From IMG/VR virus record IMGVR_UViG_3300033150_000619: 64,000 nucleotides of DNA, one strand, 5' to 3'. The notes under the pieces are model-generated. The model ran no database searches and was not told where the DNA came from. It saw nothing but the letters and a program-made list of their open reading frames with translations. Below are positions 8,546-57,987 of the stretch, one piece after another. The stretch is from a virus (Duplodnaviria > Heunggongvirae > Uroviricota > Caudoviricetes). Each line of letters starts with the position of its first letter. Position 1 is the stretch's first letter. The position numbers were made by a program, and so were the translations under genes.

Positions 8546-8551
8546 GGCAGG

Positions 8552-10634: not shown

Positions 10635-10640
10635 TTATAT

Positions 10641-12027: not shown

Positions 12028-12383
12028 CTTAAATCCACCTGGACAGAGAGCCTTTAACGAGGCTGCATCAACAACATCTTCCTCCTCACTGTAGTCTCGC
12101 AGTTAACGATTTGTTTGGACAGCTAGGGAATCCCCTATCCAATAAATTCACACCGTGGGGAACTTAGATAACTCTGGTGGATCGTAGAGTCCGACAGACA
12201 CCTTTCTCCATGTGCTTTAACCACACAGGTCTATACGGTTTCTTGTGAGACCTTGGTTTAGGCTGTGGTTTAGCCGCTACCAATGGATCTATGACAACCG
12301 TATGGTTGGTGCCTGCTTCTTCATCCACTACTCGCAGTTCTATTTTCATTTACCTTCCTCACTTGATAGTCTATCTCAGCAGG

Positions 12384-13437: not shown

Positions 13438-13866
13438 TCAGAACTTATCACCAGGTCCACTGTACCCACACTTAGGACATGTTGCAGTATAACCATACAC
13501 CGGCCTATTATCTATCCAGTCCACTTCCTCCTCCTCAAATGCAAGAGGAATGTATACCCATTTAAGACGTACTCCATTTCTTTCGAAGATATACTTACGT
13601 ATGAATTCACGATCTCGGGTTTGTATAGCTCTCTCTACTGAAGAAAGAATATATCCAGATGAATTCACGTGATTGACGAGTCTAGGTCTCAGTGAGAGAA
13701 TCCATTCTATATCTGAGATATTTAACGCACTCGCTTTCCAATGATCATCGGGCTGTTCTATCTTATTTCGTAACCAGCCCATCATGCCGGATGGCATGAG
13801 TCGACTATCCCTCATATCTTCTAGCTCAGACGTATATCCACATTTATCACACTTGAAGATGAGCAC
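13438..13866 (-). CDS. protein with zinc ribbons at both termini
   Basis: 142 aa; N-terminal CDKCGY and C-terminal CPKCGY CxxC pairs. Confidence 0.4.
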   Translation of the reverse strand: MLIFKCDKCGYTSELEDMRDSRLMPSGMMGWLRNKIEQPDDHWKASALNISDIEWILSLRPRLVNHVNSSGYILSSVERAIQTRDREFIRKYIFERNGVRLKWVYIPLAFEEEEVDWIDNRPVYGYTATCPKCGYSGPGDKF

Positions 13867-13907
13867 TTTAATACCTCAGACAGTGAATTATAGGCTATGT
13901 ATAGGTT

Positions 13908-22711: not shown

Positions 22712-23464
22712 TCACTCTATGAAATCCCGCCGTTTTAACTTCCATATCACTCTCTCACCCTTCCTGTTGTATATCATAGGATTGCTCTTGCAGACCACTC
22801 CTTCCATAAGATAATCTGGATTCCCTCCATCCTCCTCAGCTACGATAGATGTAGGACTGGACTTTACGTATTCTATAATCTGGTCTATGGTCATCCTACC
22901 TATGAAAGGTGGAGTATCAACATCTAAATCCCTGGCTACAGCCTGTATTGCCTTACGAGACAACCACCACCCTGCAGCTGATTGACTCCCATCCTGTGAA
23001 TATGGGGCTGGTCCATTGAGGTCGAGTACAAATATATCGAATATCCGAGCAGATACACCTTTACGGTAGTTATGTCCACCTTGTATCTTCTCACCATATC
23101 CTTCCATATAGAGGATTACTCCCTGTGCCCCTCTAGCCTTCCTAACAGCATGAAGGACTTTATCTAAAGTATATGTCTCAGTAAGATACTCTTGAAGATG
23201 TTTAGGTATCTCCGATGTATCAGTCCTTCCCATAAACCACAGCTGTGGATCCATGTGATCCATGTCAGATATGGGAGGATCGTGAAGATCATGGAGAGGA
23301 CCTATCATAGCTCTGATATTAGTCCCGTCTATCTTCTCATATACGTCGTAGGCTCTGACATACGGAAAGGTAGCATCAGTATAGTCTCCCTCTATAATCC
23401 TGCCAGGCTTCTTCCCTTTCATCTGTCTCTTAAAGAGAGTCTGTATCTTAGGGTACTTTACCAT
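22712..23464 (-). CDS. RNA ligase-like covalent nucleotidyltransferase
   Basis: 250 aa; motif I YEKIDGTNIR, motif IV EGVVCK, motif V IWKLKRRDF in the ligase order and spacing. Confidence 0.6.
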   Translation of the reverse strand: MVKYPKIQTLFKRQMKGKKPGRIIEGDYTDATFPYVRAYDVYEKIDGTNIRAMIGPLHDLHDPPISDMDHMDPQLWFMGRTDTSEIPKHLQEYLTETYTLDKVLHAVRKARGAQGVILYMEGYGEKIQGGHNYRKGVSARIFDIFVLDLNGPAPYSQDGSQSAAGWWLSRKAIQAVARDLDVDTPPFIGRMTIDQIIEYVKSSPTSIVAEEDGGNPDYLMEGVVCKSNPMIYNRKGERVIWKLKRRDFIE

Positions 23465-24439: not shown

Positions 24440-24769
24440 CTATGCATTGTTTTCATCCCAGTCTCTTAGCTCCAGATACTTGACTTTACCGCTGTTAAGA
24501 GGTATAGCAAATAAGACCCGCTTCTTAACTGAATGAGCTAACCTACCAGAACGTACTAAATCTAGCCCTCCTAAGACTGGTCCACCTGTAATGATTTCAA
24601 CTAAATAATCTGAGTGGATAGAACTATCTCTATACAGAGCTAGGTGGAAGCCATACTGAGTAGCTGGAGTAACATGGAATCCACGCCTAATTAGATCTTG
24701 TCTAACACGGATGATAGACTCATCTTCACTCATCGCTAAGTCTCCACCACTAAGCTTCTTCATCTTCAT
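24440..24769 (-). CDS. hypothetical protein (possibly a degenerate PD-(D/E)xK-like fold)
   Basis: 109 aa; GFHV...SDYLVEIITGG loosely resembles Hjc-type nuclease core but lacks the Lys. Confidence 0.3.
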   Translation of the reverse strand: MKMKKLSGGDLAMSEDESIIRVRQDLIRRGFHVTPATQYGFHLALYRDSSIHSDYLVEIITGGPVLGGLDLVRSGRLAHSVKKRVLFAIPLNSGKVKYLELRDWDENNA

Positions 24770-25779
24770 AGATTATTGATGGCACCTACAAACAGTACGG
24801 TGTTGCTTAGTCTATCTCGGATGAAGAATACAAATGGGTGGTCTACCCTGACTTCAACCGGCGGTGGAGGAACGTACACACACGCCAGCCGAGTCATTAC
24901 TACACTAGTAGCTGCAGCAGCTTCAGTACCTTCTTCATCTACCTCTATGAAGGTCTTGTGTACAACACCACTTATCTTAAGGCGTTCCTCAGTACTGATT
25001 CCCGTGAAGTCAGCATAGTCACTAAAAGCCAGGGGCATCCCCATATCCCCCAGTACCTTATTGAGATTATACTCAACCTCTAGACGGAATTTGGGTAGGC
25101 GAAGTATAACAGGTACGCTTCGCCCTCCAAAGGCATTAGGTGGCTTAAGTAGAGTTCCCTGGGAAACACGACCTGATCGAGACTTAGGTAGCATGATAAC
25201 CATAGAGAGTCTACTAGAATTGTAGGGCAACTCTACTATCTGCAAATCCTCGGTTTCAGCATAAGACAAATCCTTCTGTAGATGCATTATATCAACCTTA
25301 TTGGTTGTCTCAGTACCATAGAAACTATCCTTGACAGTCAAGGTCTTAGAGAACTGGTGAAGCCATTTACCCTTAAAGTAGACAGCATTAGTTATGACCA
25401 TCAGTTCATCTTCTTCTAATCTCTTTATCAGATCCTTAATCTTCCCCTTTGTTTGGATGGAGACCCAGTTGTTGATAATATCTTCAGGACAAGGTAGTCC
25501 TGATATATCCATCGTTGTAGACCTGAATGTAGTCTTAACATACTCAGCCCAATTGGGGTTGATTGGGCACCTGGTCCACACAGCATTAGCTACATTGAGA
25601 GTATCTACTTCAATATGGGGCGGATTATCTATCCCCAGTACTGAAGACATCTCGTCCAGTGTCCGCCCTCTAGCACCGTGGCGTACCATACACAGTGCCA
25701 TCTCTATACTATATGGAGATACTAAGAAATTATCTCCAGTCTCAGAGAAGATGCTGTATAACCTATCTGTAAATGTCAT
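24766..25779 (-). CDS. serpin (serine protease inhibitor)
   Basis: 337 aa; N-terminal NFLVSPYSIEMALCMV...GARGRTLDEM, hinge/RCL EVDEEGTEAAAATSVVMTRLA (predicted P1 Leu, P2 Arg), C-terminal DHPFVFFIRD...VLFVG signature. Confidence 0.8.
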   Translation of the reverse strand: MTFTDRLYSIFSETGDNFLVSPYSIEMALCMVRHGARGRTLDEMSSVLGIDNPPHIEVDTLNVANAVWTRCPINPNWAEYVKTTFRSTTMDISGLPCPEDIINNWVSIQTKGKIKDLIKRLEEDELMVITNAVYFKGKWLHQFSKTLTVKDSFYGTETTNKVDIMHLQKDLSYAETEDLQIVELPYNSSRLSMVIMLPKSRSGRVSQGTLLKPPNAFGGRSVPVILRLPKFRLEVEYNLNKVLGDMGMPLAFSDYADFTGISTEERLKISGVVHKTFIEVDEEGTEAAAATSVVMTRLACVYVPPPPVEVRVDHPFVFFIRDRLSNTVLFVGAINNL

Positions 25780-25782
25780 CTC

Positions 25783-26055
25783 TTACTCCTTGATATTAAA
25801 TATCCCAGCAATAACAACCAGGTATATTACTAGACCTACGGTTCCAATACCAAAGGTTCCCGTATCTCCTACTCTCACTCCTATTTGCCACGAGTGTGTA
25901 GTAGCCCAGTATGGGACGAACCATTGAGTAAAGTAGATAGAACTAACTACCTTACCTGCTTTGACTATAAGACTGTAAAGCCTCTTCAGGTCTGGAAACT
26001 TGATGTTGGGTATCCTAATAACATTCCTTCTATTTCTCCCCTCTGATAGACTCAT
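25783..26055 (-). CDS. small membrane protein
   Basis: 90 aa; C-terminal TM helix GLVIYLVVIAGIF. Confidence 0.35.
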   Translation of the reverse strand: MSLSEGRNRRNVIRIPNIKFPDLKRLYSLIVKAGKVVSSIYFTQWFVPYWATTHSWQIGVRVGDTGTFGIGTVGLVIYLVVIAGIFNIKE

Positions 26056-27260
26056 AGTCTGCCGTACTTCCTTAGATACATTGTAAATGCGTTGTATGCA
26101 AGACTTGGTTTAACCCTGACTGCATCTATCCCCGCCAGAGTTCTCATAACCTCAGCCTTATTATCAATAGAGACTTCTATCTTATCCTCTAGCTTCTCCA
26201 ACTCTGACCATATCATAAGAGTGTCTATCGGGAACATTCTATTGATTACTCTCTCAATACGGGCCATAGAAACCTCTACGAGATTAGCAGGGAACTCTGA
26301 GTACAGTTCCTCTATAACCATACTATGAAGCTCTCCTACAGAGTCTATCATAGCTATGTTCTCTAGAACCTTTCTTACTGCCTTATCTATCTCTTTTGTG
26401 GGTAGGGCTCCACCAGCTCTTAATTGAGCAAGGCGTCTGACGGCATCACATTTGATCTTACCCATGAACTGGTCTTCATACAGCTCCGACCAGGTCTTAG
26501 CAATAAACCCTTCATACTTTCCCATAAGTGCTTCTAAGTCATGTTGTAGGTACCCTATGGCGTCGTCTGTAATAGTTCCACGCCAGTGAAGTGTCGGAAC
26601 GGGGATGCCTACATCACTAAATAGCTCTACCTTCTTCTCATAGGGCATGAAGGAATGTGTCCGCATATCTATGATGTCAATACCAGATATCTCAATGGGA
26701 ATGGTTGGGTAATCAATGTACTCACAGGCATTTAAATAGCCATACAGTTCAACGACTGGACAATACTCATCCCTGGTCAATTGATGTAAGGCATCCCTGC
26801 GACCTGTGTTACCCACTAGCTCATTCCATTGTCTACCCATATATCCACCTAGATCATACCTGGGCACAGCTCTGGTTTTTCCCATCATAGTGCCATCAGG
26901 CAGCGGGTAGAGAATGATATTTGTACCGTCTAACTTCTCCTCAACCACAGCTTCTTTCTTATAGACGGTACTGGATTCTACATAGTTTATCTTAGGATAA
27001 CCCCTGACAATTCTAGGGTTATCATTATCCCACTTATAGAATACTGTACCATACAGCTGTCCCTGTTCAGATGAAATATAGGGATTATAGATGTACCCCC
27101 TAAATGAATGACCATGGTACTGATAATTGAAGTAAGTGAATCTGCTCTCAGGCTTCTGTACGTATCTACATATTACTGAAAGCATCTCCTCCTTGCCTTT
27201 AACTCCCTCTAGAGCTTGTTGGCATATTCGGAGCTTCTCACTTATTATCTCCACTTTCAT
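26052..27260 (-). CDS. RNA ligase-like nucleotidyltransferase (Rnl2-like motif set)
   Basis: 402 aa; motif I EEKLDGTNI, motif IV EGFIAK, motif V GKIKCD. Confidence 0.6.
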   Translation of the reverse strand: MKVEIISEKLRICQQALEGVKGKEEMLSVICRYVQKPESRFTYFNYQYHGHSFRGYIYNPYISSEQGQLYGTVFYKWDNDNPRIVRGYPKINYVESSTVYKKEAVVEEKLDGTNIILYPLPDGTMMGKTRAVPRYDLGGYMGRQWNELVGNTGRRDALHQLTRDEYCPVVELYGYLNACEYIDYPTIPIEISGIDIIDMRTHSFMPYEKKVELFSDVGIPVPTLHWRGTITDDAIGYLQHDLEALMGKYEGFIAKTWSELYEDQFMGKIKCDAVRRLAQLRAGGALPTKEIDKAVRKVLENIAMIDSVGELHSMVIEELYSEFPANLVEVSMARIERVINRMFPIDTLMIWSELEKLEDKIEVSIDNKAEVMRTLAGIDAVRVKPSLAYNAFTMYLRKYGRL

Positions 27261-29364: not shown

Positions 29365-29440
29365 TGGAGCCGGAGGGAGGACTCTAACCCCCGATCATTA
29401 GCTTACAAGGCTAACGCTTTGGACACTAAGCTACTCCGGC
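29365..29440 (-). tRNA. tRNA-Thr(UGU), CCA encoded
   Basis: Minus-strand 76-nt fold: 7-bp acceptor GCCGGAG/CTCCGGC, D-stem GCTT/AAGC, anticodon stem TTAGC/GCTAA with loop CTTGTAA (anticodon TGT), T-arm GGGGG-TTAGAGT-CCTCC, discriminator T + CCA. Confidence 0.8.
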
Positions 29441-46407: not shown

Positions 46408-46739
46408 CTCTGCTTAAGTCTATAATGAACGTCTATTAATGAGATAACAGCGTTTAACATAGCCTCTCTATTATAGTATTGAAGTTGCATACCTTCGTTA
46501 TGAGCGGTTGCCCACCGTGGTTCATGTTCATCGTAGGGGTGCACATATATTGTTAGTGTATGTTCTCTGTGTGGTATCTTAAAGCCTTCAAATCGGATAA
46601 CTGTATCATTGGGTTTTATGTGTATCATGGCTGTGTCCGACAAATCCATAGAAGGGATAAAGTCTATGGTTTCAGTGTAGAAGGGTATTCCCTCACGTAT
46701 TTTATTCTCATACTTTTCGGTTAGTATCATCTCTATCAT
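46395..46739 (-). CDS. hypothetical protein (island)
   Basis: 114 aa. Confidence 0.4.
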   Translation of the reverse strand: MIEMILTEKYENKIREGIPFYTETIDFIPSMDLSDTAMIHIKPNDTVIRFEGFKIPHREHTLTIYVHPYDEHEPRWATAHNEGMQLQYYNREAMLNAVISLIDVHYRLKQSCVI

Positions 46740-46933
46740 CTCTCGTATTTCCTAACTATGTAAGCATGATTCTCTGTTATGTCTCTAAAAGCTACACTGA
46801 ATAAGTGAATAAGAATATCTAACTCTGTATTTAGTTTTAGGTGTTGGAACATATCCCAATTTTGGATTAGGCGGATTAGTCTGTTGCGTAGGGTGTTGGG
46901 GTATTCATCTAACTGAATTACTATCGCTGACAT
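46736..46933 (-). CDS. hypothetical protein (island)
   Basis: 65 aa; leaderless ATG 25 nt after a TTAAATAC box. Confidence 0.35.
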   Translation of the reverse strand: MSAIVIQLDEYPNTLRNRLIRLIQNWDMFQHLKLNTELDILIHLFSVAFRDITENHAYIVRKYER

Positions 46934-46955
46934 AGTAATAATGAAAGAGGGGTAA

Positions 46956-46967
46956 GAGTATTTAACG
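46956..46967 (-). promoter_or_regulatory. TATA-like box CGTTAAATACTC, 25 nt upstream of ATG 46933
   Basis: Minus-strand aacgTTAAATActcttacccctctttcattattactATG. Confidence 0.45.
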
Positions 46968-47149
46968 TTTATGATTCATTGATTTGAGTTGATGATAAAA
47001 GCAGTTGAATATTAGACTAAAGTATCTTAGTCTTTCTGCCTTAGTCTTAGCGTTCTCAAACCTTATGAGCAGTGGATTTCTGTCACTCATGAATAAAAGG
47101 CTACAACATGGATAAAAAGAGATTATGGATTATGACTCTATGACTCTAT

Positions 47150-47175
47150 GAAACGGTGTTGTGTAAGACCGTTTC
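47150..47175. repeat. palindromic hairpin cassette copy D
   Basis: GAAACGGTGTTGTGTAAGACCGTTTC; perfect 7-bp arms; loop orientation matches copy C. Confidence 0.9.
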
Positions 47176-47233
47176 AATTGGGTATTGTTGGTGGCCAGAT
47201 TCATGACTTTGACGCCTCATAAAAAGAAAGGGA

Positions 47234-48133
47234 TTAGTTAATCTGGCCCATATGGGATAGGGTATTGGGTATCGCTACCCTTTCGCTTAATCTGCTTTGT
47301 TCTTTATACCACCGAATTAGTTTAGTATCGTCATATTCCCAATAACAACTTAGTATAGCTTCAAATAGCTGTGTAGCTGTATCAATGTCTAATTCCTTAA
47401 ACTTATCTATGATTGAATAGAAGCATTTACTGATATTACCAAATTGCATCTCAGCTGGTGAGTTGTATGGTATATCCCTACTTTTACCGTATACTATTGG
47501 TGTTATTCCTAATTTCTCTAACCCCTCAATAACTGCATTAACCTTTCTATCCATTCTTAGATATTGTATATTCTCACCGTTATCTATTGCTTTTTGTATG
47601 AGTTGGAGTATTCTAACTGTTGTTTCTGTCGGTTCATGGTATACGTGATAATACCTTTTCTGTGTCTTAAGGTTGACTAACATAAGTATCTTAATTATTG
47701 CTTTATCTTCATACCGTAGATATGTGCGTGCGTGCTTTCTTCTCTTTATTGAACCGTCATTTAATCCATATCCATCCATGGCGTGAGTAACCAAATCGGT
47801 AGATAGATTTGAATTATATGTTTGTTTAGATGTTTCATACCTTACGTTAAAGACTCTTTTAGGGATTATGTTTAAACTCTTTTTGAGTCTAAACAGACGG
47901 GTTTTATTAGTGTTTAATATGTGTGCTGAAACATCTAAGCCTAAACCTAATTCGTTATGTATTGTTAGTCTTTCTTCTATTTCCTTTTCCTTTTCCGCTG
48001 ACATGGCTATACCCCTAACCGTTTCACCATTATATAAATGGCTAAGGTTGTTTTGGGAGGTGTTGGGTGAAAGTGGTTGCCCCACTATATTCACCCTTTC
48101 TGTTTCTTTTTGAGGTTTCATCGTTCTCCTCAA
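47234..48133 (-). CDS. hypothetical protein (island boundary)
   Basis: 299 aa; GAGGAG Shine-Dalgarno 4 nt upstream of the ATG; no recombinase or transposase motif recognised. Confidence 0.45.
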   Translation of the reverse strand: MRRTMKPQKETERVNIVGQPLSPNTSQNNLSHLYNGETVRGIAMSAEKEKEIEERLTIHNELGLGLDVSAHILNTNKTRLFRLKKSLNIIPKRVFNVRYETSKQTYNSNLSTDLVTHAMDGYGLNDGSIKRRKHARTYLRYEDKAIIKILMLVNLKTQKRYYHVYHEPTETTVRILQLIQKAIDNGENIQYLRMDRKVNAVIEGLEKLGITPIVYGKSRDIPYNSPAEMQFGNISKCFYSIIDKFKELDIDTATQLFEAILSCYWEYDDTKLIRWYKEQSRLSERVAIPNTLSHMGQIN

Positions 48134-48357: not shown

Positions 48358-51300
48358 CTATGCTACATTGATGTAAGTCCTATCATTAAACTCCTGGAGC
48401 TTGCCCTTGTTGTATTTGTTAGTTGACCTATAATATCCTACGACTCTGGAGAATACCTCAGTTGCACCACCACAACTGCTGCAGTCATAGTGTACACCAC
48501 GTTGGTAGCTACCACATTTGGGGCATATACTAAACGTAGCAGAGAAGTCAAAGTATGGTACCTTGGTGTTCTTAGCTATACTCTCCGTTAGCTTAGCTAG
48601 ACCTGCTGGGTGCGGGTCAGCTTCTCCTACATATATTCTATGGACTGTACCACCGGTAAAGGTAGTGAGATATGGCTCTTCAAAGAGCAGTCTCTCCTCC
48701 ATTCCCATTTCATAGGAAGGTGGAGTTATCATAGAAGTATAGTATGGGGAATCTGTCTCTCCCATCGTATATATATCTGGGTACTTCTTCCTGTCTTTGA
48801 TGGCTAAGTCAGTAGCAGAACCTTCAGCCGGTGTCATCTCAAAGTTCCACAGCAGACCCGTTTCCTGCTGTGTTGTCTTAGTCCAGTTCCTGATGTATTG
48901 AAGGACTCTAATTGCTAAGTCTCCAGCTTCTATAATATTACTTCCTGTATGGTTGATGCACATCTCATTAAGACCGACTATACCAATAGTACGGAAGAAT
49001 CTACTCAGGTCTACTTCGTAGATTCTTGCTATAGGCATAAGTCCACTATTAATAGACTTATTGACTATATCGCCCTTAATCTCTAGTGCTTCCCTAGCCA
49101 TAGAAAGAGTCATGTCTAGGTTATCAAATAACTCACTCTCTTCACGACTGATATACCCCAGACGACCTAAATTCAGTGTTATTACTCCTATTGAACCTGT
49201 GTTGCCTGATAAAGCCCACCTACCTCCTGCAGGTGGTAGCTGACTTAGATCTAAGTTTAATCTACAGCAGTTATGCGTTATTACACCATTAGCTAGTTGA
49301 TACAGATGCGGCTCTGGTAATTCAAGAGTATATACAGTGTCAGCGTGATACTTCTCCTTAATGTCTATGACCGATACCCACTGATAACCACCTTGATCAG
49401 TGTACTTACTGCTATTATCCTTACAGATACGTATTACCTGTGATGTCTTTAGTGTTCTAGTATATTTTATACCAAGGCTTCCTAATACATCACAGATATC
49501 ATCGGCTAACTCTGGATTGTTAATGTGTAGTTCATTGTCTCTATTGTAGCCGTCCCCCTGCCATAGACCATCTATCAGTCCTTGTCTGAAGTCTACAGAC
49601 CCTCTAAAGACAGCAGCTCTTAGTTTCTTCTCGGTGGATAACCTTCCACTCACGAAGCTTCTGACTAATCCTCTAACAGATTTATCATACGTTAATAGGG
49701 AAACAGCAGAGGATCTAGGATCAGGTACCTTAATCGACCTCGCTCCTAACGTGCGTTGCAGGAACTTAGTTATAAAATCTATATGTTCTGCTTCATCAGA
49801 ATGGAAGGTGAACTGTATCGCTTTACCAGTGTCTAGTCCTTCTGCAATGTATAGTCCAATTAGCCTACCTAGATCATAAGTTCCATATTCTGTATCATAT
49901 GGAGTAGATGCCATTGGGAGTCTCACTCCCGGTCGTAAGTCAACGGCTCTAATCACTCCATCATCTGTTAGGAATAGATGTGATTTCGTAACCTTTAGTA
50001 TGTTACCGTTGTCTAGATAAACATACAATAGATTGCTATCGTACTGATAGGCATCTACGTAGCAGGGAACAAACTCACCATTGACTAGTGCTTCTATGTT
50101 GTGTTTAGTGCTCGTTCTATAGAGATTCCTTAAGGTATCTCTAGAAACTCTACCATCAACGCGATAGATGACTTTGGTTTCTCCCTGGAAGCACATTGCT
50201 TGTACGCTGTCTTCATCAATACCAGAACCTACATAGTTCATGTAGTACCAGTTACCGAACTTAGCATCTGTACGCATTATCTCATAGAATAGATCTGAAC
50301 TAAAATCTGTAGACTTGATCAGATTTAGAGTTGGTATAGGGAACGTAAACACAGATCCTATTCCGTCCCCTTCATACAGAACATGATTAAAGGCTTTGAT
50401 TATAGTCTCTGCTTCATCTGCAAAGTCTTCATATGTATTACCATTGTCTAATACAGGTAACTCCCTGAGTTGTTTAGGACACTTAGAGTCAAATATTAAA
50501 TTAGTAAAGGGTGTATTACCAGTGAAGGCTATCTTACCATTTCTAAGAACTATCATGCTATTGTTGTCTGTATTAATACCGTACACTCTTCCATCGTAAG
50601 GAATAGTCTCAACCTCTGCATAAGTTCTATCTGTGAAGTCCCTAACTATAGATATATCATAAACTCCGTTGTCTCTTAATCTATTATTGGTTAAGTACCC
50701 AGCAATAACACATAATTCTTGGAATCTCAATAAGTCGGATTCGGAATTAGTATATAACCTAAATCTGGACTTAGATCCATCTCCCAACCTATATTCAGAT
50801 AAGAACAATCTGGCCTGGTTTCTTGACAACAAAGATGTCCACTTAGGTATGGATTTACTATATCCACTCTTATAGAAAGTAAATCTCTTGACTGGTGCAT
50901 TAGCACACCCGCCGGAATATTCAGACTCTGTCCATTCTATACCATTATCAGACAGAGTGGATCTTATGCACTCTATATTCTCTGGATTGAGTATAGATTG
51001 TCCTATTACTATTCTATCCTCTTTGGTTTTGTTAGGTGTTATATTACCCTCAGAGACTATCCATGCCCACAACCTTATTTCTTCATCCGTAATTGGATAA
51101 TCTTCCCTGTCAATAAGTCCCATAGCAGGAACTAAGACTCTAGATTTCCTATCGAATATGTCTTTAGCCATCTCAAATCTAGGAGTATCATCATAATAGG
51201 GAAATGTAATAACTCTGTGTTCTGGAACGACTAATTGATCAGTTCTCTCATTGTGTATGTGATACATTAATCCATTATAATTGTATCTAACTACCTTGTG

Positions 51301-52947
51301 GATGGGCAATACCTCTATTTCTCTAGTCTCCATATTGAAGGTTAAGGCTAAGTCGGACTCAGATATCTCATCTATTGATTTCCATCCATCTAGAGTTAGA
51401 GTAAGGGTATCTTCAGATACACACTGATAACCTGCTCTAGAAGGATAATTTAGATTGAATATAAGCCTCTGCATCTCCTGCTTAACTTCCTCATAGGATA
51501 GGTTGTCGTGGTAGACAAACGGGGCTAACAACCAGTTGACATTAGATATAGCTTGGGCACCAGCCCATTCCTGCTGTGATGTAGCCATAAAGTTCACTAT
51601 ATGGTCTACAGCTGTATTAAGGTGCTTAGCAGGCTTAGATCTAATTCTTGTAGTTATTAGTCCCATATTCAACAGTTTGAACAGATCAGCACCATAACAA
51701 TTATGTACTTTGAGTCCAACAGTAGAGAATATACCAGATTCTGTTGTTATATCATAGACCATCTTCCCCTTCCAAGGAATCCTCCATAGCTTCTTTACCC
51801 TAGGAGTTCTGTCGTAGTAATCTATATTGCCTGGCTTTCCAACTCTGTACCGAATATCATTCTTACTGGTAATCTTTAATGATTCAGAGAATAGAGTGAT
51901 ACATCTCTCTTCCATGAATATCTTAAGTTTGAATATATTCTCAGTGGTACTAAATCTCATTGCTACCGGAAGACGTATGATATCAAACAGTGTCTTTAGT
52001 TGGCTGACTAATTCATATGATGTAGTGTCTATCCCAATTATAGATGCTCCTTGTTTAGGGGTGATACACCAACCGTCTCCGTCTATTATACCTGCTATGA
52101 TATCAAAGAAGGTCTCTTGTGTGAAGTCAGTATATGGAATAGCTTTATTGTGGGATCCGTTCTCCGGAACAGAGAATAGACGTTTGACTAACAGATTATC
52201 TCCATTAATAACTATATCCTTCCCGTATATCGAGAAATCTATATTATAGTCTACTAATACCCTTAGTATCTTGTTCTTCTCTGGTGAATCGTATTCTATA
52301 CAGTAGTTCTTCCCTCTTTTGAATCCTTTGGCTATGTACATTCCTAACAACCAGGCAATATCAGACGCAATGTGTGTTCTTCCAAAGACAAATCGTCTAG
52401 ATGGAAGAGCTGTAGTTAACTTATCTCCTACATTCAGTTCTGAAGCAGGCACAGTAGTTTCTGCAAGTCCTACAAAGATAGGGTGATCCTCTGTTACAAT
52501 TAGTATCCTTCCATTGTCTGTTTCAATTCCAATTAGATCACAGTGTGAGGGATGTGACTGTGTATCAATTATATTAACCCAGGTAGCATTGTCCTGTAAA
52601 GTCTCTAGATTGCTCTTACCTTGTACGTCTTTAAGAGACGTAAAGAAAGGTCTCTTGATGTTAGCATCTCGAACTAGGATTGATGTAGAGCCTATATACG
52701 AATAGGGAACTATACCATCGCTGAGATTATGTATATGGAAGTACCCATCTAAGTAAGCCTTCCTAATCATATCGGGATACTGGCTTAGTGAGTATCTCTT
52801 AATGTTCTTCTTAGTCATATATGCCTGTAGACCTGAGTATGATATATCTGAGTTAGCGTTCTCCTTAATCTGCCAGTCACTCTTCTGTATGTAACTCTCA
52901 ATATCATTGCTCCACGAATCGTCAGTAGTCCTTAATAGCTCGTCCAT
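48358..52947 (-). CDS. nrdD: anaerobic ribonucleoside-triphosphate reductase (class III RNR) interrupted by three inteins
   Basis: 1529 aa; N-terminal YLDGYFHIHNLSDG; conserved CCRLNLD just after intein 3; C-terminal Zn ribbon CPKCGSY...CSSCGG and glycyl-radical motif SRVVGYYRS; the extein sums to about 637 aa; GGAG Shine-Dalgarno 8 nt upstream. Confidence 0.85.
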   Translation of the reverse strand: MDELLRTTDDSWSNDIESYIQKSDWQIKENANSDISYSGLQAYMTKKNIKRYSLSQYPDMIRKAYLDGYFHIHNLSDGIVPYSYIGSTSILVRDANIKRPFFTSLKDVQGKSNLETLQDNATWVNIIDTQSHPSHCDLIGIETDNGRILIVTEDHPIFVGLAETTVPASELNVGDKLTTALPSRRFVFGRTHIASDIAWLLGMYIAKGFKRGKNYCIEYDSPEKNKILRVLVDYNIDFSIYGKDIVINGDNLLVKRLFSVPENGSHNKAIPYTDFTQETFFDIIAGIIDGDGWCITPKQGASIIGIDTTSYELVSQLKTLFDIIRLPVAMRFSTTENIFKLKIFMEERCITLFSESLKITSKNDIRYRVGKPGNIDYYDRTPRVKKLWRIPWKGKMVYDITTESGIFSTVGLKVHNCYGADLFKLLNMGLITTRIRSKPAKHLNTAVDHIVNFMATSQQEWAGAQAISNVNWLLAPFVYHDNLSYEEVKQEMQRLIFNLNYPSRAGYQCVSEDTLTLTLDGWKSIDEISESDLALTFNMETREIEVLPIHKVVRYNYNGLMYHIHNERTDQLVVPEHRVITFPYYDDTPRFEMAKDIFDRKSRVLVPAMGLIDREDYPITDEEIRLWAWIVSEGNITPNKTKEDRIVIGQSILNPENIECIRSTLSDNGIEWTESEYSGGCANAPVKRFTFYKSGYSKSIPKWTSLLSRNQARLFLSEYRLGDGSKSRFRLYTNSESDLLRFQELCVIAGYLTNNRLRDNGVYDISIVRDFTDRTYAEVETIPYDGRVYGINTDNNSMIVLRNGKIAFTGNTPFTNLIFDSKCPKQLRELPVLDNGNTYEDFADEAETIIKAFNHVLYEGDGIGSVFTFPIPTLNLIKSTDFSSDLFYEIMRTDAKFGNWYYMNYVGSGIDEDSVQAMCFQGETKVIYRVDGRVSRDTLRNLYRTSTKHNIEALVNGEFVPCYVDAYQYDSNLLYVYLDNGNILKVTKSHLFLTDDGVIRAVDLRPGVRLPMASTPYDTEYGTYDLGRLIGLYIAEGLDTGKAIQFTFHSDEAEHIDFITKFLQRTLGARSIKVPDPRSSAVSLLTYDKSVRGLVRSFVSGRLSTEKKLRAAVFRGSVDFRQGLIDGLWQGDGYNRDNELHINNPELADDICDVLGSLGIKYTRTLKTSQVIRICKDNSSKYTDQGGYQWVSVIDIKEKYHADTVYTLELPEPHLYQLANGVITHNCCRLNLDLSQLPPAGGRWALSGNTGSIGVITLNLGRLGYISREESELFDNLDMTLSMAREALEIKGDIVNKSINSGLMPIARIYEVDLSRFFRTIGIVGLNEMCINHTGSNIIEAGDLAIRVLQYIRNWTKTTQQETGLLWNFEMTPAEGSATDLAIKDRKKYPDIYTMGETDSPYYTSMITPPSYEMGMEERLLFEEPYLTTFTGGTVHRIYVGEADPHPAGLAKLTESIAKNTKVPYFDFSATFSICPKCGSYQRGVHYDCSSCGGATEVFSRVVGYYRSTNKYNKGKLQEFNDRTYINVA
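49243..49256. repeat. dispersed palindrome ACTTAGATCTAAGT copy
   Basis: Exact 14-mer inside the nrdD extein right after CCRL (codes NLDLSQ). Confidence 0.95.
49270..50193 (-). mobile_element. intein 3 in nrdD
   Basis: aa 919-1226; starts CFQGETKVIYRVDG, ends VYTLELPEPHLYQLANGVITHN followed by CCRL; internal GLYIAEG / LIDGLWQGDG LAGLIDADG-like motifs. Confidence 0.7.
50515..51423 (-). mobile_element. intein 2 in nrdD
   Basis: aa 509-811; starts CVSEDTLTLTLDGW, ends RVYGINTDNNSMIVLRNGKIAFTGN followed by Thr. Confidence 0.65.
51634..51645. repeat. dispersed palindrome variant CTTAGATCTAAT (11/12)
   Basis: Inside the nrdD extein (codes RIRSK). Confidence 0.8.
51700..52542 (-). mobile_element. 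intein 1 in nrdD with LAGLIDADG homing-endonuclease domain
   Basis: aa 136-416; starts with Cys after SHPSH, ends MVYDITTESGIFSTVGLKVHN followed by Cys; two LAGLIDADG-like motifs (LLGMYIAKGF, IAGIIDGDGW). Confidence 0.75.
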
Positions 52948-53145
52948 CGGATTAATCTCCTTGTGGATGATTGTATTCTATTCCTTATCTTAAAAGTATA
53001 TCCTTGATCCCTATGAATCTCAGTTGTCAATGAAATCACGTAGCTATAACTCGCTCTTGGAGCATTATAAGTCTGCTTTCACGTAATCATAACGATAGTT
53101 AGACTTAATTCTATACAGACTGTAAAGATAGTAGGAGAGACACAG

Positions 53146-55242
53146 ATGCCCTATAAGTCTATCTCTGAGTTACCTGCCAGTGTCAGAAATACACTACCAG
53201 TGTCTGCATTAAGGATATGGATGAATGCATATAATTATGCCATAGCCAATCCAGATAAAGTCGAAGGTGAGCCAGCCCAGTATGCTTGGGGAGCTGTTAA
53301 GAAAGTCTATGAGAAAAGGGACGGTAAGTGGGTTAAGAAGAACAACTTAGATCTAAGTGTGCAGGAGATAGAAGACCTGCAGCTTACTACTGCTGACATT
53401 GTAGACATACTTCCTAAGAGGTTCTGGGAAGTTCCTGTTAGATATGGGTACAGAGTTGCATCTGACATGGGTAGATTGCTATGGAATGGGTTGAAGAGTA
53501 CGTTTACTTCTAGTGTCAGCCTTGATGACTACGTAGGACAGCCTATCCACCTAATAGAAGATGTAGTATCCTACGGTACCTTCATCCTTAAGAAATCAGT
53601 AAGTAAGAGGAAGGATGAGGACGAAGAAGATGAGTTTGACTTCTATGTATATGAAGTAGACTGGCTTAGGAAGTTCCCTGGTCCTTTGCCTGTTAGGGTT
53701 AGGAAGAAAGAGTATGGTCTACTCAATAGGAAAGACTATTCCTTTAAGATGTTAAGTGGACTTAGTAATAGAGACCTACTCTATATACACTCTTACTGCC
53801 ATAGTGGTCACCATCTCGGGATAAAGGAGTTTCATGACCTTGTGGCTAAGGAAATGGAGAGAAGAGGTATAATACATCCAGTCTATGCACCAATGGATAA
53901 GGACACACCTGAAATACCTGCTCCTGACATTGGGGATACACCTCAATTAGATATAGAGGATAAAGTTACATTAGAGCAGTTCCTGTCTATGCTACCAGAT
54001 CAGTTTTCTCTAGACGCTCCTCCACCTAAGATGTGGGTTACAGGGGATATAGTTAACAAAGGGATAACTACAATATCTGATGGCATAGACATAGTGGTAG
54101 GGCAGGATGAAGTAGATCCCCGCATAATCAGTAAGATAGCCAGCTTAATAGGAGATGACAGAGTTAAGAAGAGTATCAGGGTCATATTCTCTACAGAGGG
54201 TCCTCCCTTTGGATATAGTATTCCCCTTTACAGGGATGCATTCCAGAAACTAAGCTATAGAAGCACATTTAATCCTACAGACTACCTTAGATATACGCGT
54301 CCATCAGACAATACATATACTAATCTACAGACTTTATGGGATGAGTGGGGCAGCGTTAGAATAGATGACGGTTTATTCGTAGAGAAGAGATATGATGGTA
54401 TACCTGTATCTGTACATCATTTCCCTGGCAGTCGTACAATAATCCGCAAGAACAAGGTACCACTTAAGTTAGATTCGATAGAGTTAGAACTTAGTAAAAT
54501 TGATAGACAGTTTGTAGGTATGGGTACAATAGTCCAGTATGACTGCAACAACATCAAAGTGAATAAGATAGAGGAGCTCTGTAAGCCTATCCCCGCTGGT
54601 GCTGAAAAGTTAAGGAAGAAGCCATTTGGATACACACACGCATCTGACTGTACAGTCCTCCACTTACACGAAATAGTATTCTTAGATAATACACCAATAC
54701 ATAACGGATCATATAAAGAAAGGGTAGAGTTAATGGACTCCCTCATCCCGGATGATTTAATCCATGTGAGGAAAGTACCCTATTCATTGGTTAAGTCCAA
54801 AGCAGAATTAGAGAGTGCAGTATCTCAGTTATTGAGTATCGGATCAGACGGTGTCAACATTAAGGAAGCTACCTCAACATTCAACTTCAGTGGTAAGAGT
54901 AAACAGATGGTAGACTTAGACAAAGACAGTGATGTTATTGTAATAAAGCTAAAGGACTGTACTCTGTTTCATGATGAGAATATATGTCCTCTCTACACCT
55001 TAACACATCATTCATTAACTAAAGTAGCTATTGAAGAATTACAGTACCCAGTGAAGTGTCAATTAGCATCATTAGTAAAGTGTCCCTTGGTGAAGGACTA
55101 CTACTATCAGTTATCTAAGCCTGTAGAAATTAAGAACTGGTTTATACCCTTGACAGAACCAGATCCTTCAGATACTCATACTCCTCTAAATCAATCAGAC
55201 CAGCCTTATAGGACTTATACAGAAACCGGAGGGCTTTCCTAG
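53146..55242 (+). CDS. ChaB-domain protein fused to a large C-terminal domain with degenerate ligase-like motifs
   Basis: 698 aa; N-terminal 70 aa (MPYKSISELPASVRNTLPVSALRIWMNAYNYA...AWGAVKKVYEKRDGKWVKK) closely match the ChaB N-terminus as recalled from memory; C-terminal FVEKRYDGIP, VLHLHEIVF, DGVNIKE and IVIKLKD resemble ligase motifs I, III, IV, V with the catalytic positions altered; AGGAGAG Shine-Dalgarno 6 nt upstream. Confidence 0.6.
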   Translation: MPYKSISELPASVRNTLPVSALRIWMNAYNYAIANPDKVEGEPAQYAWGAVKKVYEKRDGKWVKKNNLDLSVQEIEDLQLTTADIVDILPKRFWEVPVRYGYRVASDMGRLLWNGLKSTFTSSVSLDDYVGQPIHLIEDVVSYGTFILKKSVSKRKDEDEEDEFDFYVYEVDWLRKFPGPLPVRVRKKEYGLLNRKDYSFKMLSGLSNRDLLYIHSYCHSGHHLGIKEFHDLVAKEMERRGIIHPVYAPMDKDTPEIPAPDIGDTPQLDIEDKVTLEQFLSMLPDQFSLDAPPPKMWVTGDIVNKGITTISDGIDIVVGQDEVDPRIISKIASLIGDDRVKKSIRVIFSTEGPPFGYSIPLYRDAFQKLSYRSTFNPTDYLRYTRPSDNTYTNLQTLWDEWGSVRIDDGLFVEKRYDGIPVSVHHFPGSRTIIRKNKVPLKLDSIELELSKIDRQFVGMGTIVQYDCNNIKVNKIEELCKPIPAGAEKLRKKPFGYTHASDCTVLHLHEIVFLDNTPIHNGSYKERVELMDSLIPDDLIHVRKVPYSLVKSKAELESAVSQLLSIGSDGVNIKEATSTFNFSGKSKQMVDLDKDSDVIVIKLKDCTLFHDENICPLYTLTHHSLTKVAIEELQYPVKCQLASLVKCPLVKDYYYQLSKPVEIKNWFIPLTEPDPSDTHTPLNQSDQPYRTYTETGGLS
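53345..53358. repeat. dispersed palindrome ACTTAGATCTAAGT copy
   Basis: Exact 14-mer inside the plus-strand ChaB-fusion gene (codes NNLDLSV). Confidence 0.95.
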
Positions 55243-55702: not shown

Positions 55703-56080
55703 CTAAGATTCCTTCTTGAATATTGCAGACTTTGGTATTACACAACTGTCGTCTTTGTACATCTTCCATATGCCTTGGAGCTTCTCCCCTCCGAAGATCA
55801 TAGTTGTACCTTCTTCACTATCTATGATATTAATTAAGCCAGAGTCTATATTGACGATATTACTCTCAATACCCTTGGGAACGGGTCTCAGCTTCCTTTC
55901 TATAACTATGGTAGATTCGGTTGTAGTAGGATCATCTACTAAACTCCATTCAGAGTTCCTACCCTCAACACGTATGTCCCAGTGTGTCTTAACTTCACCG
56001 TCTACAACAATATCATGCTGATTAAGTGTAAAGTCCCTGGGTTTTATATCCTTGAGCATATCCTTAGTTATCTTCACCAT
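55703..56080 (-). CDS. hypothetical protein
   Basis: 125 aa; first gene of the distal structural-like module. Confidence 0.4.
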   Translation of the reverse strand: MVKITKDMLKDIKPRDFTLNQHDIVVDGEVKTHWDIRVEGRNSEWSLVDDPTTTESTIVIERKLRPVPKGIESNIVNIDSGLINIIDSEEGTTMIFGGEKLQGIWKMYKDDSCVIPKSAIFKKES

Positions 56081-56883
56081 CTGTACCTCTGTTTGAACTT
56101 AGCCTCTAAGGTAGTACTAGTCTTCTTGATGTATGTTAAGGCTTCTATATCCTGAAGTGATAGGGTAGCTGCCTGTGGTCTGAAGTAGATATCAGAGGTT
56201 GTATCCATTAGGTAGAGAATATATGGTGTCCTGTTGAGTGGAGAACCTATATCATACAAAGATGTACTCTCTGTTAGATTTACTGTATAGTCCTCCCCTG
56301 GTTCTGGCTCGGTAATGTTCCATGTAACCTCAAGTTGAGGAGAAACACCTGAACTGTGCTCAAAGGAGCAGCCCCTCCTTAAATGGGTACCATCATCACT
56401 TCTACCGTCATGATCATCCCAAAAAATGACTAGATCATTTCCCGCAACCCAGTTTGGTCTATCAACAATTTCTTGGATGATTGTCTTAATATTGGGGCTA
56501 GTATAAACAACTCCTGCTGTCCATGGGGGAATGTCATCCCAATAAACAACGGCTGAGGTTCTTGGTCTCGTTGAGTAGTTGTCGTAGTTTGTGAAGGTTA
56601 CTGCATTATCAGAGTCTTCCCCTCTAAGTTTGCTTCTTACACCTGTAGAACTATCTGACCTTCTTGCTCTGATATTAAAATATGCACTTTCTATCGTTGC
56701 ACCTTGAGGAATATCAACTCCCACAAACCGCCCCCCACCACCTGCTTTTACCTCACTTGTACCCCAATTACCGACATGCCACCTTTCATTTATAAGTTGA
56801 CAAACCCAATCAGTTCCATTGTAACTGACGAAGACATCATCGGTATTACCTTCAATATTCCATGTGTTGGTTGTCATTCTCAA
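56074..56883 (-). CDS. hypothetical structural-like protein
   Basis: 269 aa, Trp/Asn/Asp-rich, Gly run GGGGRFVGVD. Confidence 0.4.
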   Translation of the reverse strand: MRMTTNTWNIEGNTDDVFVSYNGTDWVCQLINERWHVGNWGTSEVKAGGGGRFVGVDIPQGATIESAYFNIRARRSDSSTGVRSKLRGEDSDNAVTFTNYDNYSTRPRTSAVVYWDDIPPWTAGVVYTSPNIKTIIQEIVDRPNWVAGNDLVIFWDDHDGRSDDGTHLRRGCSFEHSSGVSPQLEVTWNITEPEPGEDYTVNLTESTSLYDIGSPLNRTPYILYLMDTTSDIYFRPQAATLSLQDIEALTYIKKTSTTLEAKFKQRYRW

Positions 56884-57987
56884 TCACCCCCTTATCTTAG
56901 TGTATATGTCTGTAACTGTATCCTTGATGGTTAATGCTACCGATATGGCTGCAGTATAGAGACCTGTACTAGTCTCTTTAGTTAACATATCTGTAGCTAA
57001 ATCTTTTAGGTACACAGTCACATACCTACTGAGTACTGTCCACCATGTATAGAACTCTGATATGATGGGAGCCTCGCTCCACGTTCTATACCATTGAGAC
57101 ACCCTACTAAAGTAATCACTTAGATCTAAGCCCTGTAATCTAACCGATTGATATTCCTTAACTATGAAGTCCTGTGCTGAGATACCTTGGGTCCTTAGCA
57201 TGAAATATGTCCTGTAGAGGATATGGTATAGATTGATAGGGGTATACGGACTCCTGTACCAACTTAATGTCCTGTTATAGGCATCCTGTATTCTAATATC
57301 CGTAATCCTGCGATGGTTGTATCTATTGGAGATATTGTCAATGACGGACATACCTGTCTCTGATACCCACCCATACACTTTGGAGAGATAACCTGCCATT
57401 AGAGTACTGTCATACATATTACGGTAATATTCTACCTCCCTGAAGAAGATGGAGTATAGACTTAGGTACTCATTGAATACGAATAACATATATTGCTTAA
57501 AGATAAAGTATCCATCTACAACTACAGAGTCTACTAGAGTCCTACTGTATCCCCACACTCTCTGTGATGTAGCCGAGAGAGATGTAGAATGAGTCAGCTC
57601 CTTACGTACATCCCATATTCTGTTATATAGACTATACATGGACCATGATTGGATCAAAGATGGTCTAAAGTCTGCCTGGCGAATAGCAGATGCAATTAGA
57701 AGTAATGTGTCCTCACATACCTGCCTAAAACCATACGTTGTTATTATGTAATCTAAGAGATATATGGACTCTACAAATCCTTGAGATACAAGTGGCTTTA
57801 GATAACTAAAGTAATCTGCTATAGAGATACCCTGGATTAATGACCACTGTAACTGAGATACTGCGCTGTAGTAGTGTGATAGTATTAAAGATTGTAATAG
57901 ACTTAGATACTCGCCAACAATACCATAACCTCGGGTTACGAGCTGTTGGTGCTCGCCGAGTCCTCTGGTTATGATGGTATGTGGCAT
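56884..57987 (-). CDS. Tyr/Ser-rich structural-like protein (baseplate or fibre-associated?)
   Basis: 367 aa, low-complexity Y/S/L-rich; abuts the previous gene; contains palindrome copy 57118-57131 encoding QGLDLSDY. Confidence 0.4.
   Translation of the reverse strand: MPHTIITRGLGEHQQLVTRGYGIVGEYLSLLQSLILSHYYSAVSQLQWSLIQGISIADYFSYLKPLVSQGFVESIYLLDYIITTYGFRQVCEDTLLLIASAIRQADFRPSLIQSWSMYSLYNRIWDVRKELTHSTSLSATSQRVWGYSRTLVDSVVVDGYFIFKQYMLFVFNEYLSLYSIFFREVEYYRNMYDSTLMAGYLSKVYGWVSETGMSVIDNISNRYNHRRITDIRIQDAYNRTLSWYRSPYTPINLYHILYRTYFMLRTQGISAQDFIVKEYQSVRLQGLDLSDYFSRVSQWYRTWSEAPIISEFYTWWTVLSRYVTVYLKDLATDMLTKETSTGLYTAAISVALTIKDTVTDIYTKIRG
57118..57131. repeat. dispersed palindrome copy (exact 12-mer, 13/14 of the 14-mer)
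   Basis: ACTTAGATCTAAGc inside 56884..57987 (codes GLDLSD). Confidence 0.95.

Follow-up and report, generated by a model that had tools for sequence, protein, structure and literature searches.

The locus described here raises a double question: does a 1529-codon open reading frame (ORF) of a tailed virus encode an enzyme with additional domains of its own or an enzyme split by self-splicing elements, and can an active product result from it? The ORF belongs to a 64,000-nucleotide stretch, hereafter called the window, of an uncultivated virus of the Caudoviricetes (IMG/VR record IMGVR_UViG_3300033150_000619). An original prediction, made from the nucleotide sequence alone, had described a single ORF of 1529 amino acids (aa) at positions 48358-52947 and had read it as a gene for a class III anaerobic ribonucleotide reductase (RNR) carrying three inteins. 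The ORF list bears out this frame, on the minus strand and with an ATG start, and the ORF encodes a class III RNR (NrdD) interrupted by three inteins with LAGLIDADG endonuclease domains. Very probably, it is a working nrdD, of class III and without an ATP-cone, that has been invaded by three separate mobile inteins. When the unspliced ORF was scanned against Pfam, NRDD matched with E = 9.2e-125 (418 bits) split over four stretches, Intein_splicing matched in three stretches and LAGLIDADG_3 was also found. Among the NCBIfam models, TIGR02487 (NrdD) scored 381.8 bits, for a cut-off of 326.35, and intein N- and C-terminal models matched as well. A protein identical to the 1529-aa ORF is present in the JGI collection (P0001).

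The boundaries of the inteins were determined from empty sites and from alleles. Eleven intein-free NrdDs were aligned to the full precursor. They place zero residues inside the three intervals 83-416, 509-811 and 919-1226, and their flanks rejoin as GIVPY↓CYGADL, SRxxYQ↓TPFTNL and SVQAM↓CCRLNL (arrows mark the junctions). Excision of the three intervals restores the conserved PY↓C, YQ↓TPF and AM↓CCR. Moreover, allelic inteins found in other NrdDs align from first to last residue with each insertion. Nine such end-to-end alleles are available for intein 2, with C1, H69, E125/G126, D215/G216 and T301-G302-N303 (intein numbering) being invariant, while those of intein 3 are in P0003, P0007 and P0022. 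The predicted limits of inteins 2 and 3 were found to be exact, and the three elements total 945 aa, 61.8% of the gene, in agreement with the earlier estimate of about 60%. In P0003 and P0022, the insertion point of intein 3 is MC↓C, offset by one residue from M↓CC in the window.

The start of intein 1 had to be moved from Cys136, which made it a 281-aa element in the original prediction, to Ser83, which makes it a 334-aa element. This follows from the 11 intein-free homologs and from the alleles of P0003, P0004 and P0005, which align to residues 1-334 of intein 1 and are each initiated by Ser right after Pro-Tyr. A shorter element, Cys136 to Asn416, with residues 83-135 belonging to NrdD itself, is suggested by the sequence taken alone, in which Cys136 precedes a hydrophobic stretch. 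Its probability is virtually nil. Residues 83-135 are unmatched in every one of the aligned intein-free NrdDs, and position 136 is Thr in P0003 and P0004. With this start, no more than 16 residues would precede block B (TEDH, residues 152-155), against about 70 with Ser83, and it is excision from Ser83 that gives back PY↓C and the full-length NRDD match. The Cys136 start was rejected on the basis of the empty site in homologs, of the Thr in the two alleles and of the spacing of block B.

With the boundary of intein 1 so displaced, the spliced extein amounts to 584 aa (66 kDa) and not to the approximately 637 aa first proposed. It gives one Pfam NRDD (PF13597) match spanning positions 1-560 of the 562 of the profile (E = 1e-142, 477 bits for a cut-off of 26.2). 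The features of the NrdD family are present: the full-length profile match, an RVxGY motif after a four-cysteine zinc ribbon and the equivalents of T4 Cys79 and Cys290. All the extein motifs named beforehand could be placed, with HIHNLSDG at residues 71-78, CCRLNLD starting at residue 1227, RVVGYY at residues 1501-1506 and a C-terminal zinc ribbon of the form CxxC-x10-CxxC at residues 1475-1492 (motifs CPKCG and CSSCG within residues 1475-1493). In a search with the extein only, intein-free NrdDs of 558-590 aa showed 63-72% identity across 95-100% of the extein. The nearest named relatives in this search were from Bathyarchaeia, Patescibacteria and DPANN-type metagenome bins (41-46% identity). 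The closest phage NrdD is only 38% identical. As in the nearest relatives, the ATP-cone is absent from the extein.

Among solved structures, the best relative of the extein is T. maritima NrdD (TmNrdD; 4coi; NrdDh in RNRdb), with E = 1.6e-31 and collinearity over residues 59-573. The two proteins have in common the Tyr-Cys pair, the xCCR motif, loop 2, the zinc ribbon and the glycyl-radical loop, the site of the glycyl radical being Gly621 in TmNrdD (PMC4493059). They differ at the xCCR motif, which is MCCR in the extein, a variant reported for NrdDh4, but SCCR in TmNrdD, and at the base-stacking position, occupied by Phe in the extein and by Tyr in TmNrdD. The criteria for NrdDh are an xCCR motif and a Tyr preceding the reductive Cys (PMC4493059). 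MCCR and PYC are seen in the extein, which these motifs tentatively place in the subclass.

We then considered the residues of the inteins. Accepted nucleophiles are Cys or Ser at position 1, a terminal Asn and Cys, Ser or Thr at position +1 (PMC4031507). The corresponding residues here are S83...N416↓C417, C509...N811↓T812 and C919...N1226↓C1227, and the block B His is found in all three inteins. The pattern Cys...(H)N↓C/T foreseen for each insertion is that of intein 3; intein 1 starts with Ser and intein 2 ends with Gly-Asn. Inteins 1 and 3 have both the block B Thr-x-x-His and the penultimate His (TEDH and HN; TKSH and HN), and block B of intein 2 is VPEH. The block B Thr and the penultimate His are assisting, not obligatory, residues. 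LAGLIDADG-like blocks had been predicted in the three insertions, and two motifs were indeed found in each: LLGMYIAKG (residues 200-208) and IAGIIDGDG in intein 1, WAWIVSEG and EYRLGDG in intein 2, LIGLYIAEG and DGLWQGDG in intein 3. Class 3 inteins combine a first residue that is not a nucleophile with a Cys at position 4 of block F. This signature is absent from the window inteins, whose first residue is Ser or Cys and whose block F residue is Asp, Gly or Thr. Two relatives of intein 3, in P0025 and P0013, have a class 3-like look, with an apparent Pro1 after SMC and Cys at block F position 4, and a third, in P0023, has Ala1 and a His-Gln terminus.

Searches of the PDB with each of the three inteins as a single sequence gave nothing significant. 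Therefore, family profiles were needed. The profiles matched solved inteins and homing endonucleases, and the model of intein 2 matched endonuclease-bearing inteins. The profile of intein 3 retrieved PI-PkoII (8e-9), the Pho CDC21 intein (6e-5) and the gp41-1 intein (1e-4). In Pfam, intein 3 exceeded the Intein_splicing cut-off (4.7e-9, 36.7 bits for 35.8) and matched LAGLIDADG_3 (1.5e-4). The profile of intein 2 (8 members) retrieved PI-PkoII (2.7e-9) and the AceL NrdHF intein (2.8e-5); its Intein_splicing match was weak, at 17.7 bits. The AlphaFold model of intein 2 had a predicted local distance difference test (pLDDT) of 88.7 and a predicted template modelling score (pTM) of 0.87. Its top PDB matches in Foldseek were the TliVMA, PhoVMA, PI-PkoII, PI-PfuI and PI-SceI inteins (E from 9e-14 to 5e-9), I-DmoI coming next for the central domain. 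For intein 1, the PDB matches of the profile between 1e-3 and 1e-2 are exclusively inteins and LAGLIDADG enzymes. Evidence for the HINT fold thus comes from a model in the case of intein 2, but only from profiles in that of the other two. Intein 1 is a distant relative of intein 3 (cross-matches of 2e-7 and 2e-9), and intein 2 is of a separate lineage. When the three family profiles were run against the six-frame translation of the window, no further inteins were found.

The likeness to the solved archaeal and yeast inteins, namely TliVMA and PhoVMA (7qsu, 7qst), PI-PkoII (2cw7), PI-PfuI (1dq3) and PI-SceI (1vde), thus consists of a HINT domain with an inserted LAGLIDADG endonuclease, the template modelling score being 0.6-0.7 for the model of intein 2. 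The window inteins differ from them by a sequence identity of 9-15%, by a size of 303-334 aa instead of 360-540 and by their host proteins, and the Gly-Asn end of intein 2 is a further difference. These data bear on the view that the three segments are native, lineage-specific domains of NrdD. The in-frame position of the segments is all that speaks for this view, which we regard as next to impossible and have rejected. Indeed, the segments are absent from homologs that are 63-72% identical, they show HINT and LAGLIDADG fold and profile matches, and their terminal residues are canonical. In addition, relatives of these elements sit in RNA polymerase subunits: the nearest non-NrdD relatives of intein 1, in P0062 (6e-17) and P0064 (6e-15), belong to proteins of about 2450 aa with RNA polymerase Rpb1 and Rpb2 domains. 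The coordinates of the features are collected in Table 1.

Table 1. Coordinates of the nrdD gene, its extein segments and its inteins in the window (residue numbers refer to the unspliced precursor)
Feature	Position	Strand	Description	Basis
nrdD precursor ORF	48358..52947	-	1529 aa, stop codon within coordinates, 173.8 kDa, ATG start	ORF list
AAGGAG, Shine-Dalgarno-like	52957..52962	-	9 nt before ATG; putative function	read from sequence
extein segment 1	52702..52947	-	aa 1-82, C-terminal end HIHNLSDGIVPY	junction alignment with 11 intein-free NrdDs
intein 1	51700..52701	-	aa 83-416, 334 aa, 37.8 kDa, Ser1, ends VHN, +1 = Cys417	
codon AAA, Lys207	52327..52329	-	replaces catalytic Glu of first LAGLIDADG motif	allele alignment
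extein segment 2	51424..51699	-	aa 417-508, first residue Cys417, last residues SRAGYQ	alignments
intein 2	50515..51423	-	aa 509-811, 303 aa, 35.0 kDa, Cys1, ends TGN, +1 = Thr812	
extein segment 3	50194..50514	-	aa 812-918, TPFTN at start, EDSVQAM at end	alignments
intein 3	49270..50193	-	aa 919-1226, 308 aa, 34.8 kDa, Cys1, ends THN, +1 = Cys1227	
extein segment 4	48361..49269	-	aa 1227-1529, CCRLNLD at start	alignments
zinc-ribbon cysteines C1475, C1478, C1489, C1492	48472..48525	-		sequence; TmNrdD C-terminal domain alignment
glycyl-radical motif RVVGYY	48430..48447	-	aa 1501-1506	aligns with RIVGY of TmNrdD

In order to position the inteins with respect to the active site, the alignment with 4coi was used together with the residue roles given in PMC4493059. 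The expectation that the insertion points lie at conserved catalytic sites was confirmed by alignment to the NrdD references. Intein 1 splits Tyr82, which corresponds to Tm Tyr124, from Cys417, which corresponds to Tm Cys125, T4 Cys79 and E. coli Cys175. Tm Tyr124 is near the O2′ and O3′ of the ribose, and the equivalent of Tm Cys125 is the conserved cysteine of the reductive half-reaction (PMC4493059). Intein 2 lies within specificity loop 2 (Tm 217-228), between Gln508 and Thr812-Pro-Phe814. In this loop, Arg504 and Gln508 correspond to Tm Arg221 and Gln224, and Phe814 to Tm Tyr227 and T4 Phe194. Tm Gln224 is hydrogen-bonded to the substrate base, on which Tm Tyr227 or T4 Phe194 stacks (PMC4493059). 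Finally, intein 3 splits Met918 from Cys1227-Cys1228-Arg. The restored MCCR aligns with 328-SCCR-331 of TmNrdD and 288-MGCR-291 of T4 NrdD, so that Cys1228 is aligned with T4 Cys290, the radical cysteine (PMC4493059).

From this anatomy, a splicing model can be proposed. The gene would be translated as one 174-kDa precursor from which the inteins would excise themselves by the standard class 1 pathway. The first reaction would be an acyl shift at Ser83 (the presumed nucleophile of intein 1), Cys509 and Cys919, and the second a transesterification to the +1 residue (Cys417, Thr812, Cys1227). Cyclisation of the terminal Asn (416, 811, 1226) and a final shift to a peptide bond would then leave the 584-aa, 66-kDa NrdD. 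Because each intein splits an element of the active site, the precursor should be inactive until the three inteins have been excised.

This placement raises the possibility, compatible with the invasion by mobile inteins, that the elements are kept as a post-translational gate. Splicing would need reducing, anoxic conditions, for instance through a Cys919-Cys1227 disulfide in intein 3, and the oxygen-labile NrdD would mature only when able to work. Other inteins have been reported whose splicing is redox-controlled via disulfides between catalytic cysteines. Besides, each intein interrupts an element of the active site, and two of the three are immediately adjacent to catalytic cysteines; intein 3 has Cys at positions 1, +1 and +2, and the inteins are under purifying selection. 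However, purely selfish inteins are likewise expected to occupy conserved sites and to have their splicing residues under purifying selection (PMC2814812), and close syntenic relatives thrive without inteins. Overall, we hold such a gate to be very unlikely.

Selection was examined by comparison with a related strain. The viral contig IMGVR_UViG_3300033149_001352 (136 kb, hereafter L001) is 97.5-98% identical to positions 38408-61031 of the window and encodes an equivalent 1529-aa ORF with all three inteins (nrdD at 7568-12157). The exteins differ by 5 synonymous and 0 nonsynonymous changes, and the inteins by 12 synonymous and 4 nonsynonymous changes (A162T, P372T, N556S, G724A). For the inteins, the ratio of nonsynonymous to synonymous substitution rates (dN/dS) is 0.095, with a binomial P = 1e-5 under neutrality. 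The G+C content of the inteins (36.5-40.8%) is similar to that of the exteins (36.8-42.7%). Because dN/dS is low and G+C content alike, we read the gene as functional and the inteins as long-resident elements apparently constrained to keep splicing, the counts being small. An unusual conservation of nrdD, as after recent homing or gene conversion, was considered and rejected: strain divergence is 0.46% for the gene and 0.2-1% for the background.

The distribution of the inteins among related viruses was also analysed. The loci L002 and L003 contain an intein-free nrdD, 68% identical, at a syntenic position. As in the window, the neighbourhood encodes proteins of 1061 aa (55% identity) and 293 aa (58%) and a baseplate-like BppU_N protein (67%), and it includes the divergently oriented ChaB-ligase gene as well as the 299-aa gene downstream of nrdD. 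Other alleles are partly occupied. In P0002, only intein 2 is present; in P0004, which comes from the metagenome of L001, only intein 1; and in P0003, inteins 1 and 3 are accompanied by one more near extein position 300. The contigs of these three alleles are viral, with capsid, portal or PolB genes nearby. Moreover, the 42 nucleotides around each insertion site are 74-81% identical in intein-free relatives, as compared to 63-66% for the whole gene. Such a patchwork of empty and partly occupied alleles is what homing predicts. The inteins would thus persist and spread at the DNA level by endonuclease homing into the empty alleles of co-infecting viruses.

The three endonucleases appear to be in different states. 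I-DmoI and PI-SceI possess a catalytic Glu/Asp pair. In intein 2, the catalytic carboxylates E633 and D723 are kept and family-invariant, as are E1036 and D1132 (intein numbering E118/D214) in intein 3, and both endonucleases are apparently intact. In the first motif of intein 1, YIAKG replaces the YIAEG of P0003, P0004 and P0005, the second motif, IIDGDG, being unchanged. The AAA codon of Lys207 is present in both strains and is one transition away from GAA. By analogy with I-DmoI and PI-SceI, since Lys207 stands where the catalytic Glu is expected, the endonuclease of intein 1 is probably inactive and the element now immobile, an expected late stage of the homing cycle. The occurrence of relatives of intein 1 in RNA polymerase proteins suggests that its lineage moves between different host genes. 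At codon 724 of L001, the invariant Gly that follows the catalytic Asp of intein 2 (LGDGS) is Ala; the intein 2 endonuclease of this strain may be starting to decay.

Several observations weigh against a gene with three functional inteins. Sequence-level support is weakest for intein 1. Its Intein_splicing match (7.6e-6, 26.3 bits) is under the 35.8 cut-off, with LAGLIDADG_3 at 0.006, its family profile retrieves PDB entries weakly (I-Tsp061I 1.3e-3, Pab PolC intein 3.6e-3, I-DmoI 5e-3), and its AlphaFold model, from a 4-sequence alignment, was unusable (pLDDT 53.5) and was excluded from the fold search. In addition, its pairing of Ser1 with Cys+1 is treated in the literature as nearly unique, the GOS TerL intein being the documented case (PMC10189870). 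In intein 2, Gly replaces the penultimate His, and position 7 of block B is Val instead of Thr; in intein 3, position 4 of block F, usually Asp, is Thr. The selection test rests on a small count, 21 nucleotide differences between the nrdD genes of the window and L001. Finally, no NrdG is visible in the window or in the loci of five relatives.

These points can be answered in part. The identity of intein 1 leaves little doubt because excision is clean, the TEDH and VHN↓C blocks are present and two LAGLIDADG motifs are found. For intein 2, the TGN terminus is invariant in the 8 of 8 family members and the block B His is retained. That an intein can splice without this His has been documented (Chen, Benner and Perler 2000, cited in PMC4031507). 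The same observations could be taken to mean that the gene is decaying, with at least one intein, most likely 1 or 2, no longer splicing, no active NrdD being made and the ORF persisting by chance. The lost catalytic residue of the intein 1 endonuclease (K207), the non-consensus assisting residues of inteins 2 and 3 and the lack of an NrdG in view would fit with this. Nevertheless, two independent assemblies both preserve the 4.6-kb frame, none of the 5 extein substitutions is nonsynonymous and the intein dN/dS departs from neutrality. The deviating residues are fixed across allelic families in otherwise conserved NrdDs, as illustrated by the TGN end and by Ser1 in all close alleles, and every direct nucleophile is intact. 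We therefore consider a decaying gene to be highly improbable and retain the working nrdD with three inteins.

The Ser1/Cys+1 pairing, here Ser83 with Cys417, led to the most interesting by-product of the analysis. Insertions at the same Tyr↓Cys site were found in 23 NrdD clusters. The first residue is Thr in 14 of them, Ser in 8 (7 identified by script, and P0004 from the alignment) and Cys in 1, and the +1 residue is the catalytic Cys in 23/23. The members with Ser1 have in common a His that precedes block B by about 20 residues and usually follows Arg or Lys; its counterpart in intein 1 is His132, preceded by Ser. In the members with Thr1, Lys occupies this position. The conserved His resembles the 'NX' histidine specific to Ser1 inteins (PMC10189870), of which it is a candidate counterpart. 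Intein 1 is like the GOS TerL intein in its Ser1/Cys+1 pairing and in its origin from an environmental virus. GOS TerL, however, is a split mini-intein in a terminase, and intein 1 interrupts NrdD as a contiguous maxi-intein that includes an endonuclease domain. A second difference is the conserved His some 20 residues ahead of block B, present in intein 1 and said to be missing from GOS TerL (PMC10189870). Overall, the Ser1 and Thr1 inteins of the Tyr↓Cys site may form a large and apparently undescribed allelic lineage.

The activation of the enzyme and the lifestyle of the virus were also considered. A scan of both strands of the window, which covers 64 kb of a genome of about 176 kb and in which not every ORF was scanned with hidden Markov models, found no stop-to-stop ORF of at least 60 aa with a CxxxCxxC motif, save one spurious 67-aa frame, which agrees with the earlier statement that no NrdG is adjacent. 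In the five related viral loci, no radical-SAM gene was found within 10 kb of nrdD. As no NrdG is visible, activity of NrdD therefore depends on an activase of the host or on one encoded elsewhere. The sole radical-SAM gene of the window, 43 kb from nrdD at 4951-5907 on the minus strand, encodes a 318-aa radical-SAM/SPASM protein with a non-canonical Cx5Cx2C cluster motif (CNMDPRCHYC). Its best scores, about 63 bits, were with AhbD, NirJ and MoaA-type models, all far under the cut-offs; as an unusual NrdG it was rejected (NrdG2, 33.7 bits for a cut-off of 131). The presence of NrdD implies replication under anoxic or micro-oxic conditions. To this extent the proposed anaerobic lifestyle of the host is upheld, but a strict anaerobe is not required, since phages of facultative hosts carry nrdD.

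We compared this gene with known NrdDs containing inteins. The search with the full precursor returned 63 homologs and favours intein-bearing proteins, while the search with the extein alone disfavours long proteins that carry inteins and omits P0001, P0003 and P0004. Because these biases go in opposite directions, no intein frequency can be given for NrdDs. About 10 clusters among the 63 homologs have at least three insertions and two have four, so that the description of triple-intein RNRs as unusual was overstated. The closest arrangements are those of P0010 (2136 aa, 'anaerobic ribonucleoside-triphosphate reductase [Desulfobacterales bacterium HSG2]') and P0006 (2104 aa), which share insertions at extein sites of about 82, 174 and 282. 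At site 174, both have an intein that is homologous to intein 2 from end to end (E = 1e-37 and 4e-30). They differ from the window gene by a fourth insertion near 127, by an N-terminal ATP-cone, by exteins only about 31-32% identical and by site-82 inteins that begin with Thr; P0010 is attributed to a bacterium and the window gene to a virus.

More generally, RNRs are among the most intein-rich proteins: one survey counted 211 inteins in bacteria and 43 in archaea (PMC4760082). In sequenced phages, nrdD is split more often than any other RNR gene, with a putative intein in Clostridium phage c-st (PMC3653736), and nrdD is fragmented in 95 of 104 genomes of the Jug jumbo phages (PMC12880540). 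These phage nrdD insertions carry Intein_splicing or endonuclease domains (PMC3653736, PMC12880540). In c-st and the Jug phages the same viral gene is targeted, by single inteins or with fragmentation by introns or free-standing endonucleases, in contrast to the three inteins in one frame described here. The arrangement is thus of a familiar kind: inteins favour RNRs, and multi-intein NrdDs are already in databases.

Other features of the window deserve mention. A nucleotide search with nrdD returned zero matches in 50,697 phage records, and an exact 45-mer from the 5′ end of the gene was absent in IMG/VR because the related strain differs at that stretch. Promoter and terminator scans flanking nrdD gave nothing that exceeds chance. 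Downstream of nrdD, the ORF at 47234-48133 (minus strand, 299 aa) lies in a hotspot of divergence between the strains (window 46500-48000, 8-25% compared to a background of 0.2-1%). Its product matches no PHROG or NCBIfam family and is 34% identical in the relatives without inteins. It was considered as a free-standing homing endonuclease (WhiA-LAGLIDADG, E = 0.006) and rejected, having no family match and being conserved in intein-free relatives. A second strain-variable patch, at 56000-57000 (ORFs 56074-56883 and 56884-57987, minus strand), is partly aligned with L001 and 12-32% divergent. At 24766-25779 (minus strand) a full-length serpin is encoded (Pfam Serpin, E = 7e-88, profile 5-369 of 370). 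Four genes for nucleotidyl-transferase ligases are found within the 64 kb, at 13908-15671, 22712-23464, 26052-27260 (minus strand) and 53146-55242 (plus strand). One of the products is a complete ATP-dependent DNA ligase with N, M and C domains, two contain an RNA_ligase domain and the fourth is a ChaB fusion. In the latter, which is divergently oriented from nrdD and 698 aa long (1032 aa in the L002 homolog), ChaB is fused to a ligase adenylation domain. ORFs at 6582-7949 and 8552-9979 (minus strand) correspond to a DUF2201 metallopeptidase with a VWA-like domain, near a MoxR-like ATPase (PHROG 1297). A KaiC/RecA-like ATPase (17724-18695), an SPFH/Band 7 protein (31484-32509), tRNA-Thr (TGT) and tRNA-Gln (TTG) (29365-29440 and 30154-30226, minus strand) were also identified. 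In the related viral contig L004/L005, a small protein with an eRF1-like / acVLRF1 domain is encoded at 13559-14065, close to the intein-free nrdD.

Overall, this gene offers a clean natural example of one enzyme that would need three independent splicing events, each at an element of its active site. With empty, single and double alleles in related viruses, the order of invasion and the interference between neighbouring inteins become open to study. The Glu-to-Lys replacement of intein 1, beside two apparently intact endonucleases, would place different stages of the homing cycle in one gene. One further proposal, which we consider unlikely, is that the chemistry of the Ser1 and Thr1 lineage, together with Cys1, Cys+1 and Cys+2 of intein 3, makes the maturation of NrdD a redox-dependent oxygen gate. 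If true, it would be an oxygen gate for a glycyl-radical enzyme built on an oxyester-to-thioester chemistry documented so far only in the GOS TerL intein. The Ser1/Cys+1 lineage, including its Thr1 forms, would provide material for studies of oxyester-to-thioester transfer and for new splicing tools.

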